Positions 2 to 9,305 of a DNA stretch of 20,000 nucleotides are shown in pieces (position 1 is the first letter of the stretch; each line of letters opens with the position of its first letter). The notes beneath the pieces are model-generated. The model was given only the letters and a program-made list of their open reading frames with translations. It was not told the origin of the DNA and did no database searches. Location of the stretch: the IMG/VR virus record IMGVR_UViG_3300033066_000417. One strand, given 5' to 3'. The translations under genes and the position numbers were made by a program. Source of the stretch: an uncultured virus (IMG/VR IMGVR_UViG_3300033066_000417) (taxonomy: Duplodnaviria > Heunggongvirae > Uroviricota > Caudoviricetes).

Positions 2-1957
2 TTTAGAAAAATACTTAGAGTTACTGAAACTCTTGCTATGGAAACTGGTATTCCAAATACAATGGAAAATGACATATACTTTCAAAATAAGTATAACTGT
101 TTTGATTTTCCTCAGTTCGGTGAACAATATTATAAGCTTAATGGTGCTGTAAATAACAAAGACTTTCAAAGATTAATAGCAAAAACTACTTCTCAACTAT
201 CTGTGCTTCGTGGCGTAAAATTCCAAGCAGTGACGGGTGGTTATGGAATTCAGTTTGCTAACGATTCATCCATAAAAATAAAAATATTTCCTGCACAACA
301 GCCTCCTCAGACTGTAGATATAATTCAACAGAACACTCAGGTGGCTATCCCAGATAATTACATGATGTATATAACACTATCTGATGCTCAACTGCTTATT
401 ACAGCAGGTGGAGGTGGTGGTTTACCTGTAGAAGAAGGAGACGGTGTAATTGGTGGAGGTGGTGTAGCTGGAAGCTTCTCTACTGCAAGTTTAAGCTCAA
501 GCAATCTAGGTACAACGGTAGGTTCTAACTTAAGAAAGTTTCCTATCTGCTGGCATTATTATAATGCTGTTACAGGGCAACGTTCATTAATATTTTTAGA
601 CGGTACTCTATTAAATTTAGATGATGAAATAACTACAGAAGGTTATCACTCAGCTAATTTAAGAAGAGCTGGTGTAGATGTAGCAAATAACTACATGACA
701 GGTAATTTTGAGATAAGAAAAAATTCTGGAAAAGTAATTTTAACTCAAGGTTCTGAAGGAGTACTAACAAACGATATCACTACTGGTATAGAGTGGAGAA
801 AAGCTCCTCCGTTTAACAGCGTGGTGATAGGTGAGTTTAAAAGATTCATAGCAGGTAACGCTGGTGGTAGCGATGCTCCTCCAAGCGGTATAGAGGACTA
901 TGATTTTTACCTTAATGCTTTTGATAATGATGGTAATAATGGTAAATCATTCGTATTCAAAAAAGATGGTAGAGTTCAAATTGATACTCCAGCCAGAAGT
1001 GCAAAAGATTTATTAAGATTGAATGAAGGTTTTGATAAACGTGGTGATGACCTAGCTAACAACTTTATTTCTGGTAATGTTACTATTGCTAAAAACAACC
1101 CACAACTTATATTACAAGACACTACTTCTACTTCTGGATTCCAAGGTATTCAAGTTAAAAAAGCGGATGGTGGTGGTATTGGATATTTTGAAAGAGAATC
1201 AGAATCTGGAAGTGATTCTATATTTACAGATGGCTACAATGCTGGAGATTGGCTATGGGCTACAACTGATAATAATGGTTTAAACGGGAAAGGTGTAAGG
1301 CTTAGTGTAAATACTGGTCATCTGGTCGTGCCTAAATTACTAGTTCAAACAGATGGTACAGTTGGAGGTACGTTACGTGCCACAGATTTAAAAGTTACTA
1401 CAGTTAATGCTCCTGCCAGTGGCTACGATAGAATTATAAGTGCTAGATACTACCCTACTGCTGGTGTGGAAATTCCTACTGTACAGCTTGAGACTGATTA
1501 TGACAATCTGGCTGGTATACAAAAACTTGTTAACTATTCCGATTCTACATCTTTACCTATAGCTTTTTCTATTTCAAACGGTGGTACTCCTACCTATACA
1601 GGCTTATCAGTTGCATTGCCAGCATACTCTTCTGCATTGATATCAATAAACTTGAATGGTACGGTTATAGGAGATGGTGTGCCTCCTGCTGATGGTGAAG
1701 TGAGGTTTGAAGTTAGAAATTCTTCAAGCACATCTGGAACATTACTACACTCTTTTGTAAGAGAATATCATATAGGTAGCTCAGAGCCAGCAAGTACATT
1801 CCATGGCTGGGGAGCATCTGAAACATTTGTGCTCACATCAGGATATGATAGATTATTCCTATTAGCCAGACAGGTCGAGACAGTGGCTGGAGCTACTGTA
1901 CAATTAAGAAATGATTCTACAGCATACTCTAAAATGACTGCAGTTGTTTTGACATAA
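2..1957 (+). CDS. Virion structural protein, tail fibre / receptor-binding-like (5'-truncated by the window edge)
   Basis: The frame is open from position 2 (FRKILRVTETLA-M), so the true start may lie upstream of ATG 38. The protein is rich in Gly/Thr/Ser/Asn with beta-strand character, has poly-Gly linkers and a ~120-aa internal duplication (AGVDVANNYMTGN...DNDGNNGK vs RGDDLANNFISGN...DNNGLNGK). Confidence 0.6.
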   Translation, partial: FRKILRVTETLAMETGIPNTMENDIYFQNKYNCFDFPQFGEQYYKLNGAVNNKDFQRLIAKTTSQLSVLRGVKFQAVTGGYGIQFANDSSIKIKIFPAQQPPQTVDIIQQNTQVAIPDNYMMYITLSDAQLLITAGGGGGLPVEEGDGVIGGGGVAGSFSTASLSSSNLGTTVGSNLRKFPICWHYYNAVTGQRSLIFLDGTLLNLDDEITTEGYHSANLRRAGVDVANNYMTGNFEIRKNSGKVILTQGSEGVLTNDITTGIEWRKAPPFNSVVIGEFKRFIAGNAGGSDAPPSGIEDYDFYLNAFDNDGNNGKSFVFKKDGRVQIDTPARSAKDLLRLNEGFDKRGDDLANNFISGNVTIAKNNPQLILQDTTSTSGFQGIQVKKADGGGIGYFERESESGSDSIFTDGYNAGDWLWATTDNNGLNGKGVRLSVNTGHLVVPKLLVQTDGTVGGTLRATDLKVTTVNAPASGYDRIISARYYPTAGVEIPTVQLETDYDNLAGIQKLVNYSDSTSLPIAFSISNGGTPTYTGLSVALPAYSSALISINLNGTVIGDGVPPADGEVRFEVRNSSSTSGTLLHSFVREYHIGSSEPASTFHGWGASETFVLTSGYDRLFLLARQVETVAGATVQLRNDSTAYSKMTAVVLT

Positions 1958-3308: not shown

Positions 3309-3842
3309 GTGGACTCAAAATATTATAATGAAAATGCTTATGTTGACATAGGTAAGTTGCTTGATGATGAGGATAAAGAATTACACAAAGAATATAAAAA
3401 AGTAACAGGAAAAAATTATGACCCAGATAAAGCGTGGGACTTGTTACAACAGCAAAAAGATAAAGACTTAAACTTAGTTCATAAAGCTAGGGCTGGAAGT
3501 ATAGAGGCTAGAAATTACCTCTTTATAAAACATTTACCTACTATAAAAGGGTGGTTAAAATCTATGAAGCATATAAAGCCAATAGACTTTAACGATAAGC
3601 TTCATGATTGTTTTTTTGTAATGATGCTGGCAATTGATGAGTTTGATGAAAAGAAGAATGATAACTTTTTACGTTTTTGTAAAATGTTCATTCCACAAAG
3701 ATTGATAAATGATTATAAAAGTAAAAAGAATAGATACGAAACAATATACCATGATAATATAGATGACTATGATGAAAATAATCCATTCATGACGTTACCT
3801 CCAAGCATGCAAAACCATGAAAAAGAATACGAGCTTACATAA
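3309..3842 (+). CDS. Sigma-70-like protein containing only region 1.2/2
   Basis: KARAGSIEARNYLFIKHLPTI...DKLHDCFFVMMLAIDEFDEKKNDNFLRFCKMFIPQRL aligns by eye with sigma-70 region 2 (AREKLI..NLRLV...DLIQEG.IGL..A.EKFD...G.KFSTYA.WWI). There is no region 4 HTH. GTG start. Confidence 0.7.
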   Translation: MDSKYYNENAYVDIGKLLDDEDKELHKEYKKVTGKNYDPDKAWDLLQQQKDKDLNLVHKARAGSIEARNYLFIKHLPTIKGWLKSMKHIKPIDFNDKLHDCFFVMMLAIDEFDEKKNDNFLRFCKMFIPQRLINDYKSKKNRYETIYHDNIDDYDENNPFMTLPPSMQNHEKEYELT

Positions 3843-7148: not shown

Positions 7149-8255
7149 ATGACCGAGAAGATAATAAAAGGCAGACAACAGTTACTTTTGACCCACAGTT
7201 TCTGGGCATCCATGACCTTAAATCTTCCTTTAATAGAAGATAAGACCATAAAAACAGCCTGTACTGATGGAACCAGCATAAGGTATAATCCAGCCTTTAC
7301 AGAGGCTCTGAGTGTGTCTGAGGCTAGCTGTTTACTGGCTCATGAAGTGGCTCATGTCATGCTTACACACCATCTTAGACGTGCAGGAAGAGACAATAAG
7401 AAGTGGAACGTGGCTTGTGACTATGTTATAAACCCTCTTTTAGTTGCTGATGGTTTTGAACTTCCAAAAGGCGGTCTTTTAAATGATGCTTATAAAGATA
7501 TGAATGCTGAGCAGGTTTATAATTTACTGCCTGATAGTGATGATGATAACGGTGATGGTGATGGAGATGGTGGTTCAGGCTTTGGAGACGTTGAAGATTA
7601 TCCTGAAAAGAATAAAGTAAGCAAAGATGAACATGAAGCTCAGGTACAGCAGATGGTAGCACAGGCTGAGAACTTAGCAAAACAACAGGGCAATATGCCA
7701 GCAGGTATGGCAAGGATTGTAGAAAATATCTTAAATCCACAGCTACCATGGCAGGAGATTCTTGCAAGATTCATATCAGCACCAGTAAAAGATGATTATA
7801 GCTGGAGAAAACCTAACTCAAGGTATGCACACATGGGAATGTATCTTCCTAGCTTGTACAGTGAAAAACTTCAGAAAGGTGTTTACGCTGGTGATACTTC
7901 AATTTCAATGGATAAAAAAGAGATAGCTGAAGAAGTAGCAGAGATAACCAGTGTATGCGATTTATATAATCAGGATATGACAGTTATATGGTGTGATTCA
8001 AAAGTAGCTGGAGTAGAAGAGATTGAAGCATTCGGTGACAGACAGATAAATCCAGTTGGTGGTGGTGGAACAGATTTTGCCCCAGTGTTTGACTATGTTG
8101 AAGAGAATGAAATCAATCCAGCTTGGTTAGTATATCACACAGATGGTGAATGTAACAGTTATCCAGCAGTTGAACCTGAATACCCAGTTATCTGGATTTG
8201 CACTGGTGAAAATTTTAATCCTCCTTTTGGAGAAGTAATTTATAAAAACAGTTAA
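7149..8255 (+). CDS. DUF2201-like protein: N-terminal HExxH metallopeptidase-like domain plus C-terminal vWA domain
   Basis: TACTDG, AHEVAHVMLTHHLRR, WNVACDYVIN, an acidic Gly/Asp linker, MIDAS-like DTSIS, GGGGTDF and YHTDG. Confidence 0.9.
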   Translation: MTEKIIKGRQQLLLTHSFWASMTLNLPLIEDKTIKTACTDGTSIRYNPAFTEALSVSEASCLLAHEVAHVMLTHHLRRAGRDNKKWNVACDYVINPLLVADGFELPKGGLLNDAYKDMNAEQVYNLLPDSDDDNGDGDGDGGSGFGDVEDYPEKNKVSKDEHEAQVQQMVAQAENLAKQQGNMPAGMARIVENILNPQLPWQEILARFISAPVKDDYSWRKPNSRYAHMGMYLPSLYSEKLQKGVYAGDTSISMDKKEIAEEVAEITSVCDLYNQDMTVIWCDSKVAGVEEIEAFGDRQINPVGGGGTDFAPVFDYVEENEINPAWLVYHTDGECNSYPAVEPEYPVIWICTGENFNPPFGEVIYKNS

Positions 8256-8278
8256 AAGGCTTAGGAAGGAAAAATAAA

Positions 8279-8455
8279 ATGAAGACATTTTCTAAAACAG
8301 TAAGAGCACGTAACAGAAGAAAGTCGGCATATGCAAGACTGGAAAAACAGCTCAAGACAGGTACCAAAAATACAAAAGAAGGCGTGAAAGAGTTAACCGA
8401 TAAAGATGTTGCCAGAATCAACACAGAGATGGTTACTCTGGAAGAAAGATTATAA
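8279..8455 (+). CDS. Small basic helical protein (58 aa, not in the supplied ORF track)
   Basis: MKTFSKTVRARNRRKSAYARLEKQLKTGTKNTKEGVKELTDKDVARINTEMVTLEERL; A-rich leader; fills the gap after the vWA gene. Confidence 0.75.
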   Translation: MKTFSKTVRARNRRKSAYARLEKQLKTGTKNTKEGVKELTDKDVARINTEMVTLEERL

Positions 8456-8472
8456 TAGCTAAAGCGTAGCTA

Positions 8473-8588
8473 GTAGAGGTAGCTTCAATTGGCAGAGCAG
8501 TGCGAGATGTTGTAGTTGATAACAACACGGTAACTCTGAAAAGAGTGAAACACGCCTCAGTTTGGAGGTTCGAGTCCTCCCCTCTACA
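8473..8588 (+). ncRNA. tRNA-like RNA with anticodon loop replaced by a ~48-nt structured insert
   Basis: Perfect 7-bp acceptor stem GTAGAGG (8473-8479) / CCTCTAC (8581-8587) with A discriminator; TA at positions 8-9; D arm GCTTCAATTGGCAGAGC; perfect T arm GGAGG-TTCGAGT-CCTCC (8564-8580). The central region is too long for a normal tRNA and folds into two hairpins. Confidence 0.8.
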
Positions 8589-8617
8589 CAAGATTTAAAA
8601 AATTAAATTTAAATTAT

Positions 8618-8908
8618 ATGGAAACAAAAATAGTATTTCAAACTAATATAGATAGGTATAAAGGTAAATTTTATACACGTTCTTTTTTGAATAGTAATGT
8701 TGTAATACCAAGAGTAGGAGACATGATAAAACTATCATACAAAGATGGAAGAAAGGAATTTACAGAAAAAGGATACCCTGACTCTTTGGAGGTGGTAAAA
8801 GTAACTTATGATTATGACGTAGAAATAATAGTAATAACTATTGAGTTACATTACAGTAGTATGGATTTAAAATTAATGAAAGCAAGCGAAACACATCCGT
8901 ATAAATAA
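8618..8908 (+). CDS. Hypothetical phage protein
   Basis: 96-aa ORF with 'IPRVGDMI...LEVVKVTY' small beta-barrel-like pattern. Confidence 0.8.
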   Translation: METKIVFQTNIDRYKGKFYTRSFLNSNVVIPRVGDMIKLSYKDGRKEFTEKGYPDSLEVVKVTYDYDVEIIVITIELHYSSMDLKLMKASETHPYK

Positions 8909-8929
8909 AAATTAAATTAAAAAACAAAA

Positions 8930-9100
8930 ATGGATATAATAACAATTATTTTTTACTGCTGTGCAGGCATGTTTAGTTTGTATTTTTTAGTAGCAAAAGT
9001 TACTCCGTTAACTGTAGCTTTGCTGTTTAAAGGGGCATCAATATTCTCACTGGTTTATATAGTAGTTCAGATTCTCAAAGCAACAGGATATATAAATTAA
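8930..9100 (+). CDS. Small membrane protein (56 aa, two hydrophobic segments; not in the ORF track)
   Basis: MDIITIIFYCCAGMFSLYFLVAKVTPLTVALLFKGASIFSLVYIVVQILKATGYIN; A-rich leader; abuts the next ATG. Confidence 0.7.
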   Translation: MDIITIIFYCCAGMFSLYFLVAKVTPLTVALLFKGASIFSLVYIVVQILKATGYIN

Positions 9101-9101
9101 A

Positions 9102-9305
9102 ATGAAAAACGAAGAAAAAGAATTATGTTCCAGATGCCACAAAGATATGAATAAGGGCTCCAATGAAGGTGGCTGTGTATGTTGCAGAGAGCACTCAAAT
9201 CAAATTATGGTGCCTGTAGAACGGGCTCCAGACCCAGATAATGATTATGACAATGAAGAGATTGAATTGTATGATGTAACAAGAGATGAGGTAAGCAGGT
9301 ACTAA
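9102..9305 (+). CDS. Small Cys-rich (putative Zn-binding) protein with acidic tail
   Basis: CSRC...CVCC followed by an acidic C-terminus; TAATG overlap with the next gene. Confidence 0.65.
   Translation: MKNEEKELCSRCHKDMNKGSNEGGCVCCREHSNQIMVPVERAPDPDNDYDNEEIELYDVTRDEVSRY

Follow-up and report, generated by a model that had tools for sequence, protein, structure and literature searches.

A phage tRNA-like gene with a two-hairpin junction in place of its anticodon loop: a candidate non-decoding tRNA mimic

A 20,000-nucleotide stretch of DNA from an uncultured virus of the Caudoviricetes (the whole of which is called the window here) contains, at positions 8473–8588 on the plus strand, a tRNA-derived gene whose body is intact and whose anticodon loop has given way to a junction of two hairpins. 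Judging from the modelled shape of its anticodon end, the encoded RNA is probably unable to read codons. We tentatively favor the view that the element may be a maintained non-decoding tRNA mimic, cut out of its transcript by tRNA-processing enzymes. The evidence bearing on this comes from the architecture of the element, its setting in a related phage genome, and a wider set of phage tRNA look-alikes that the standard tRNA finder also leaves without an anticodon.

An intact tRNA body and a rebuilt anticodon end

A preliminary description of this DNA had proposed acceptor and T arms, a closing helix at the site of the anticodon stem, and two inner hairpins, and each of these helices was verified in the sequence (Table 1). 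The acceptor and T stems are without a mismatch, and the canonical T loop, G18–G19, and U8 are all kept. The D arm had been called near-canonical with one extra T. Near-canonical it is, but the supposed extra base is better read as part of a U13–G22 pair, as in ordinary tRNA-Thr(UGU): the entire D-arm string is identical in a tRNA of that type on another phage contig (L130), and its stem recurs in the tRNA-Thr of the related phage G001 discussed below. The 3′ end lacks an encoded CCA, as first described, with A8588 followed directly by CAA. Set against the tRNA family RF00005, the element has the 7-bp acceptor with its discriminator, the T arm, and the D arm with G18–G19; the trait it fails to show is a 5-bp anticodon stem with a 7-nt loop bearing U33 and a purine at position 37. 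Heptamers resembling Ile and Phe anticodon loops are present in the insert, and, as had been pointed out, neither of them sits in a 7-nt loop.

Table 1. Parts of the tRNA-like element and the genes beside it, in window coordinates
Feature	Position	Strand	Description
DUF2201 metallopeptidase/VWA protein	7149–8255		Upstream of the element; from PHROG/Pfam scans
Upstream ORF	8279–8455	+	58 aa, very basic; no relatives
Acceptor stem	8473–8479 (5′ strand) / 8581–8587 (3′ strand)	+	7 Watson-Crick pairs
D arm	8482–8498	+	Stem GCTT/GAGC with a U-G pair; conserved GG in loop
Closing helix, at anticodon-stem site	8499–8504 / 8553–8557	+	U8501 bulged; from the minimum-energy fold of 8499–8557
48-nt insert in place of the anticodon loop	8505–8552	+	AGA, hairpin 1, CGGTA, hairpin 2, GAAACA
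Hairpin 1	8508–8527	+	6 bp, perfect, 8-nt loop
Hairpin 2	8533–8546	+	5 bp, perfect, GAAA tetraloop
Variable-loop equivalent	8558–8563	+	6 nt
T arm	8564–8580 (8564–8568 / 8576–8580)	+	5 Watson-Crick pairs, loop TTCGAGT
Discriminator A8588 and trailer CAA	8588–8591	+	CCA not encoded
Downstream ORF	8618–8908	+	96 aa; no relatives by sequence

The tRNA body of the element is certainly far beyond chance. A strict scan of the 159.5-kb G001 genome, requiring a 5-pair T stem, a TTCRA loop, and 7/7 acceptor pairing, returned mainly known tRNAs, together with the element and a few stray matches. The inner structure of the insert is not clearly beyond chance. The minimum-energy fold of 8499–8557 recovers the three-way junction exactly; this 59-nt domain has a folding-energy z-score of −0.79, with 34 of 200 shuffles folding as well. 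For the 48-nt insert z is −1.78 (8/200 shuffles fold equally well), and for the 65-nt stretch from D arm to T arm it is −0.18. The whole element stands at −1.85 (5/200 shuffles as good), and its unconstrained minimum-energy fold has neither the D arm nor the closing helix. The preliminary description had taken perfect stems in AT-rich DNA as a sign of selection. That argument is unsupported: with energies so near those of shuffled sequence (z −0.8 to −1.9), a case for selection built on the hairpins fails. A better one is suggested by the combination of a flawless body, an anticodon region remodelled beyond simple insertion, and the CAA trailer of working tRNAs.

Standard annotation passes over the element. 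ARAGORN reports no tRNA or tmRNA in the window, either at default settings or with introns allowed, and Rfam at gathering score finds no match in the window. At E ≤ 10, over positions 8300–8750, Rfam returns four matches (two snoRNAs, one sRNA, and one microRNA; E 0.44–9.1), none of them a tRNA. Two of the checks proposed along with the preliminary description thus leave the element uncalled and without an Rfam family. At a 90% threshold, ARAGORN does report a tRNA-Phe(GAA), placing an intron of 39 nt behind position 34. In that model three of the five anticodon-stem pairs form, flanked by two mismatches, the variable loop has 7 nt, and a G32–C38 pair would close the loop. The same setting also reports a gene at 8184–8300 on the opposite strand, which lies within coding sequence and is evidently spurious.

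To ask more generally what an excision could restore, we modelled all single excisions compatible with 0–2 linker bases, an anticodon arm of 17 nt, and a variable loop of 4–7 nt, 294 in number, and scored them out of 7 (five stem pairs, U33, and purine 37). None of the 294 scored above 5/7, and so none yields a canonical anticodon arm; a narrower run of 72 models agrees, and the Phe(GAA) model of ARAGORN is among the best of the full set. The earlier statement that a normal anticodon arm is absent therefore holds, with no single excision restoring one. The element is on this ground not a simple intron-bearing tRNA, and the insert is unlikely to be a simple intron or the product of a simple, recent insertion.

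Several established classes of RNA or DNA insertion were considered for the insert and rejected or judged unlikely. By eye, a 3-nt bulge (8505–8507) and a possible 4-bp helix (8508–8511/8549–8552) can be drawn; the second bulge and the flanking helix do not form, and a clean bulge-helix-bulge intron seems unlikely on this inspection. The core of a group I intron is typically longer than 200 nt, and the insert has only 48 nt and no Rfam match. For a tmRNA, ARAGORN makes no call and the 3–70 pair is A–U rather than G3–U70. No small self-cleaving ribozyme or riboswitch aptamer is among the four Rfam matches (E ≤ 10, 8300–8750), and the GA/AG pairs of a k-turn are, by eye, absent from the junction. 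Where a target-site duplication was sought there is only microhomology of 3–4 nt, which is not significant, and in the window, G001, viral contigs, and bacterial and archaeal genomes the insert has no second copy at other sites of the kind that a mobile repeat or double-hairpin insertion element would leave.

Genomic setting, relatives, and look-alikes

The window is part of the genome of a large phage that is sparsely sampled. PHROG and Pfam scans of the window recognized an exonuclease, a MoxR-type ATPase, a peptide deformylase, and SbcCD-like nucleases. The two plus-strand ORFs that flank the element are 162 nt apart in a tightly packed genome, and the element fills most of this gap. Neither ORF has a relative among 5.8 billion proteins, and a protein atlas offered no named lead for either. 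A scan found no promoter- or terminator-like sites beside the element on its strand; a lone TATAAT with a weak −35 lies at 8451–8456. The best named matches of the DUF2201 protein are in Chitinophaga (Bacteroidota), at 43%–45% identity, a weak hint to the host. In a Vibrio phage, a ‘tRNA-TERM’ feature annotated next to a MoxR ATPase is 2.6 kb long, consists of two joined pieces, and was taken as an annotation artefact.

The nearest record, G001, has 159,516 bases and is estimated to be 82% complete. It carries the element at 66.9 kb, in a match of 301 bases at 100% identity. The DUF2201 genes of the window and G001 share just 75% identity, while positions 8253–9122 show one difference (base 8392). 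This jump in identity reflects recombinational mosaicism and leaves the near-identity of 8253–9122 uninformative about selection on the element.

G001 has 17 Rfam tRNA matches and 15 tRNAs called by ARAGORN. These 15 ordinary tRNAs include neither Phe nor Ile, the two amino acids to which the heptamers of the insert would correspond. The tRNAs lie at 3–4 kb, 120 kb, and 142–150 kb, so the element is far from the tRNA clusters. The base directly 3′ of the discriminator is C in all 15, on a strand in which C makes up 13.5% of the bases. Six of the 15 have the trailer CAA, three CAG, three CCA, and one each CGA, CTA, and CTG; the trailer of the element is thus the commonest one among the ordinary tRNAs of its relative. 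Three other tRNA-like stretches, within the tRNA clusters of G001, look degenerate. One, at 148116–148190 (Rfam 50.8 bits), has an Ile(GAU)-type loop and by eye 4/7 acceptor pairs, and two more lie at 3331–3402 and 3747–3821; again by eye, the acceptor is broken in one of the three, the T loop is odd in another, and the D arm is odd in the third.

A Pfam scan of G001 covered 196 ORFs of at least 90 aa (130 + 66), each lying within a single 20-kb piece of the genome. It recognized a T4-type Pnkp polynucleotide kinase-phosphatase at 120,064–121,002 (E 5e-32), adjoining a solitary tRNA-Tyr, and an RNA ligase domain at 122,040–123,305 (28.6 bits against a cut-off of 27). Both lie about 53 kb from the element in G001, and neither was seen in the window. 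Among the same 196 ORFs, no RtcB, tRNA-splicing endonuclease, RNase III, or CCA-adding enzyme was recognized at E ≤ 1e-5. Apart from the element, G001 is richly equipped for supplying and repairing tRNAs.

Other copies of the element are identical and come from near-identical phages only. GenBank phages gave no match to a 630-nt query; a 119-nt query matched 264 records through short pieces of tRNA body, with the longest listed match at 29% cover and none at 80%. In viral contigs, a pattern built on the D loop and T loop with a 45–75-nt gap found 107 loci, of which L046 alone, on a G001-like contig, has the insert. A D-arm pattern found six loci, and patterns for the insert and for the 3′ half found one locus each, both in that same contig. 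Metagenome contigs yielded three loci, all representing one unrelated nested tRNA, and bacterial and archaeal genomes yielded none for either the insert or the 3′ half. Within the window and G001 the only copy of the insert is that of the element itself. A covariance model of the tRNA body and three-way junction (R1), run against 65 sources, recovered the element alone (150.9 bits), with ordinary tRNA-Thr(UGU) genes as the next-best matches (44.1 and 39.6 bits); at E ≤ 1 it found nothing in 80 viral loci around distant DUF2201 genes (30%–42% identity).

Parts of the stretch are contained in ten public sequencing runs from four studies, none of them an RNA run. One contig from these runs (four examined) spans 8326–8596 and departs from the window at one base only, 8392, which is not part of the element, and the contigs examined hold no divergent copy or joint of the element. 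There is, then, no divergent homologue in GenBank phages, in viral or metagenome contigs, or in bacterial or archaeal genomes. A literature search found no paper on a phage tRNA-like RNA with a two-hairpin junction replacing the anticodon loop; the nearest is Devoto et al. 2019 (PMC6784885).

Other tRNA look-alikes are more plentiful. The 107 pattern loci in viral contigs represent 75 distinct sequences. ARAGORN calls a tRNA spanning 33 of them, including 10 distinct Ile(UAU)-type sequences with long variable arms, from 37 loci; in another 16 some other tRNA call overlaps (adjacent or nested tRNAs). The remaining 26, the element and 25 more, have a tRNA-like body and no anticodon that ARAGORN can call. 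For these 26 the median insert z is −1.2, with z < −2 in ten, and GNRA or UNCG tetraloops occur four times against 0.9 expected. In one family (L038/L114/L119), both sides have changed in 9 of 29 predicted pairs, five of them in the expanded domain, and the family maintains its expanded stem and capping hairpin via such compensatory changes. Since a single motif scan turned up 25 further tRNA-like genes that ARAGORN does not call, standard annotation may miss a sizeable class. The element is a variant within this poorly understood group of insert-bearing phage tRNA genes.

What the element may be

If the element is a maintained mimic, it would probably be co-transcribed with the surrounding plus-strand genes, as tRNA biology leads one to expect. 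RNase P would generate its 5′ end, a step suggested by the intact state of its acceptor stem, T arm, and elbow. Trimming of the 3′ end after the discriminator would fall to RNase Z or exonucleases, and the host CCA-adding enzyme would complete the molecule, as for most of the phage's own tRNAs. Such processing would leave an L-shaped molecule of about 119 nt whose anticodon end is a Y-shaped two-hairpin junction, and such an end could not present a codon-reading loop on the ribosome. Selection would act on the tRNA body. In its likeliest role, the RNA would engage or titrate away a factor that recognizes tRNAs by their acceptor end or elbow, perhaps a tRNA-targeting defence enzyme of the host or an enzyme that handles tRNAs.

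Several observations are consistent with this. The body has 7/7 acceptor and 5/5 T-stem Watson-Crick pairs, with the canonical T loop, G18–G19, and U8, and the three degenerate stretches in G001 do show decay of the body, which the element does not. That 0/294 single-excision models exceed 5/7 while the body is perfect points to an anticodon end that was rebuilt. The CAA trailer is that of 6/15 G001 tRNAs, all 15 of which begin their trailers with C, and in a tightly packed genome the element takes up most of its 162-nt gap. The setting in G001 (15 ordinary tRNAs, a kinase-phosphatase, and a match to an RNA ligase family) would suit an RNA of this kind. The recurrence of uncalled tRNA-like bodies (26/75 sequences, 10/26 with insert z < −2, and one family with compensatory changes) would seem to add more support.

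Other observations weigh against a mimic. The only copies are identical ones in near-identical phages, with no divergent homologue in the collections searched, and the folding of the insert is near chance (z −0.79, −1.78, and −0.18, depending on the stretch taken). A perfect body and a common trailer would also fit a young duplicate that has not yet decayed, and the related phage evidently tolerates other degenerate tRNA-like sequences. No partner protein is apparent, as both neighboring ORFs are without relatives, and none of the 80 distant DUF2201 phage loci has a tRNA-like element nearby. In G001 some 53 kb separate the kinase-phosphatase and ligase from the element, and neither is seen in the window.

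That the element is instead a dead tRNA gene, most like Thr(UGU), is the chief rival reading, somewhat unlikely in our judgment. Its anticodon loop would have been lost to insertion or replacement by a double hairpin, leaving a neutral relic that is at most fortuitously processed. The element does have no anticodon loop, and none is restored by excision; its insert energy is near chance, it is a singleton without conserved relatives, and G001 holds three other degenerate tRNA-like stretches. The ordinary tRNAs nearest to R1 are indeed of the Thr(UGU) type (44.1 and 39.6 bits), and insertions into anticodon loops recur elsewhere, for example in the nested tRNAs of L133–L135. A relic sits poorly, however, with acceptor and T stems free of mismatches and with every conserved loop base kept, when the degenerate copies in G001 are visibly decayed. 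Had the insertion been recent and simple, an excision in silico ought to undo it, and none does; short of a complex event, a very young relic is therefore improbable. Its trailer is also that of working tRNAs, and no second copy of the insert in the collections searched marks it as mobile DNA.

By analogy with the t-elements of plant mitochondria, the tRNA body might be a purely cis-acting site at which RNase P and RNase Z split the flanking messages, with the excised RNA having no role of its own. We regard this as quite improbable. Its attractions are the location of the element between two same-strand ORFs, with no promoter- or terminator-like site found alongside, the fact that the flawless parts (acceptor, T arm, and elbow) are only those that processing enzymes read, and the precedent of the t-elements themselves, which PMC1920247 names. 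Cutting, however, would need neither the closing helix nor the two hairpins at the anticodon end, and 0/80 distant loci of the same upstream gene family use a tRNA-like element.

A very improbable reading is that of an interrupted decoding tRNA, in which the insert would be an ‘intron’ of the kind seen in Lak phages, removed by proteins: an endonuclease would cut, and the kinase-phosphatase and ligase would rejoin the halves into a tRNA-Phe(GAA). The 90% ARAGORN call with its 39-nt intron, the lack of Phe among the 15 ordinary tRNAs of G001, the kinase-phosphatase and RNA ligase that G001 encodes, and the Lak tRNA introns as a precedent (PMC6784885) all lean this way. The spliced product, however, would have 3/5 anticodon-stem pairs, a G32–C38 pair closing the loop, and a 7-nt variable loop, and no other excision does better (0/294 above 5/7). 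The relaxed ARAGORN setting behind the call also produces the spurious one at 8184–8300, and no splicing endonuclease, RtcB, or RNase III was recognized in the 196 G001 ORFs (Pfam, E ≤ 1e-5).

We give least credence to a two-headed, ribosome-inert decoy, matured by tRNA-processing enzymes, which would display the Ile-type UUGAUAA and Phe-type CUGAAAA on two look-alikes of an anticodon arm and draw anticodon nucleases or tRNA-sensing defences while the kinase-phosphatase and ligase repaired the real tRNAs, because neither motif is in a 7-nt loop and heptamers of this sort arise often in AT-rich DNA. If it were true, the element would be nature's version of the engineered tRNA scaffold and would belong to a wide and undescribed class of tRNA mimics in phages.

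The tRNAs of phages are understood partly as countermeasures against host enzymes that cut or modify tRNAs. If the element is functional, as the mimic reading would have it, phages would also make tRNA-shaped RNAs that do not decode and whose part would be that of a decoy, sponge, or carrier and not of an adaptor. The element alone is one clean singleton example and not proof of function.

Likeness to known systems

The closest known RNA is the ordinary tRNA itself (RF00005), the nearest type being Thr(UGU), which likewise has a 7-bp acceptor, a D arm with GG, a TTCGA T loop, and a discriminator. Like the element, most G001 tRNAs are without an encoded CCA. The difference lies at the other end, where an ordinary tRNA has a 7-nt anticodon loop and the element a 48-nt two-hairpin junction. 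In the tRNA-like domain of tmRNA the acceptor and T arm are kept and the anticodon arm is replaced by other RNA. The element resembles tmRNA in just these respects, with tRNA-like ends and a replaced anticodon arm; it differs in having A3–U70 rather than the alanine identity pair G3–U70, in the 48-nt size of its insert, and in that no tag reading frame was seen.

Engineered tRNA scaffolds graft foreign hairpins onto a tRNA body for processing and stability. Such scaffolds and aptamer-tagged tRNAs carry hairpins on a tRNA body as the element does, but are man-made (see PMC7590224). No aptamer family matching the hairpins of the element was found in Rfam, either in the window at gathering score or over 8300–8750 at E ≤ 10.

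Plant mitochondrial t-elements (PMC1920247) share with the element a tRNA-like structure between genes that RNase P and RNase Z might cleave. They belong to another domain of life, and the cutting of the element is putative. The tRNA genes of Lak megaphages have conserved introns that Devoto et al. 2019 (PMC6784885) call ‘enigmatic’, with their mechanism left unexplained there. These introns and the insert of the element are alike in being short insertions in the anticodon region that belong to no known intron class and have no known mechanism of removal. For the Lak tRNAs, however, the eukaryotic mode of tRNAscan recovers type, anticodon, and intron (same source), whereas no excision restores the anticodon arm of the element.

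The other phage look-alikes (for example L033, L131, L021, L064, and the L038/L114/L119 family) have in common with the element the D- and T-loop motifs that the search pattern demands and, like it, no usable anticodon; those that were folded also have a paired acceptor. L033 and L131 have the same D-arm string as the element, but they encode CCA and show by eye an apparent 8-bp acceptor, where the element has no CCA and a 7-bp acceptor. The inserts of the look-alikes are without sequence similarity to that of the element, and most form one long hairpin in contrast to its two-hairpin junction.

tRNA-like genes with remodelled anticodon arms

Besides the element of the window, 25 distinct phage tRNA-like genes at viral loci escape calling by ARAGORN, and in most of them a single long hairpin replaces the anticodon arm. 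With the element counted, 10 of these 26 uncalled sequences have an insert with z < -2 (folding energy relative to shuffled sequence). The D-arm string of the element is also present in L033 and L131, two of these loci that encode CCA and whose acceptor stems look to be 8 bp long. In a three-member family of tRNA-like genes (L038, L114 and L119) the extended anticodon stem contains both a tetraloop hairpin and an internal loop that includes CCTAGG; compensatory changes (9 of 29 pairs) preserve this stem. At locus L029, as read from its fold, a hairpin domain of ~36 nt appears to lie between the D arm and the otherwise normal anticodon arm of a tRNA-Thr(GGU)-like gene.

A long variable-arm hairpin characterizes a big phage family of tRNA-Ile(UAU)-type genes (ten distinct sequences, 37 viral loci), every member of which is called tRNA-Ile(tat) by ARAGORN.

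Positions of tRNA-like genes and associated features (L-numbers, loci from pattern scans; G001, nearest related phage record; L142, a piece of G001)
Feature	Locus and position	Strand	Remark
Uncalled tRNA-like genes, examples	L021, L028, L033/L044, L051, L064, L095, L116, L131, others
Extended anticodon stem	L038:1490-1583	-
Extended anticodon stem	L114:290-383	-
Extended anticodon stem	L119:286-381	+
tRNA-Ile(UAU)-type family, examples	L022, L025, L043, L058, L059
Outer tRNA-like gene with inner tRNA-Lys(UUU)	L133, about 1243-1420	+	whole inner gene inside outer anticodon loop
Solitary tRNA-Tyr, kinase-phosphatase and RNA ligase	G001 119,958-123,305
T4-type polynucleotide kinase-phosphatase	L142:64-1002		directly adjoins the solitary tRNA-Tyr
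RNA ligase gene	L142:2040-3305		about 1 kb beyond the kinase-phosphatase in G001
Degenerate tRNA-like stretches	G001 3331-3402, 3747-3821, 148116-148190		in tRNA clusters
Perfect TATAAT hexamer	window 8451-8456		17 nt before the start of the element

Flanks of the element in the window

Compared over 7227-8248, the DUF2201 gene upstream of the element is 75% identical to its G001 counterpart, but window positions 8253-9122 differ from G001 at one position in 870 bases, which marks a sharp recombination boundary at about 8250. The TATAAT hexamer shares bases with the stop codon of the upstream ORF and is accompanied by only a weak -35; it is absent from the promoter-scan list for the window.

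tRNAs and repair genes of G001

All 15 ARAGORN tRNAs of G001 carry a C directly after the discriminator, while CCA is encoded by only three and CAA by six, a pattern suggestive of a common signal for 3'-end maturation. The three degenerate stretches within its tRNA clusters comprise an Asp-like one whose T loop is odd, one with an odd D arm, and an Ile(GAU)-like one whose acceptor stem is broken. The stretch that holds the solitary tRNA-Tyr, the kinase-phosphatase and the RNA ligase is likely a tRNA repair module.

A tRNA nested within a tRNA-like gene

Two further metagenome loci, L134 and L135, share the nested layout of L133, with tRNA-Lys(UUU) lying within the outer anticodon loop. If RNase P and RNase Z cut out the inner tRNA, the outer halves would end in 3'-OH and 5'-phosphate groups, which a ligase could join.
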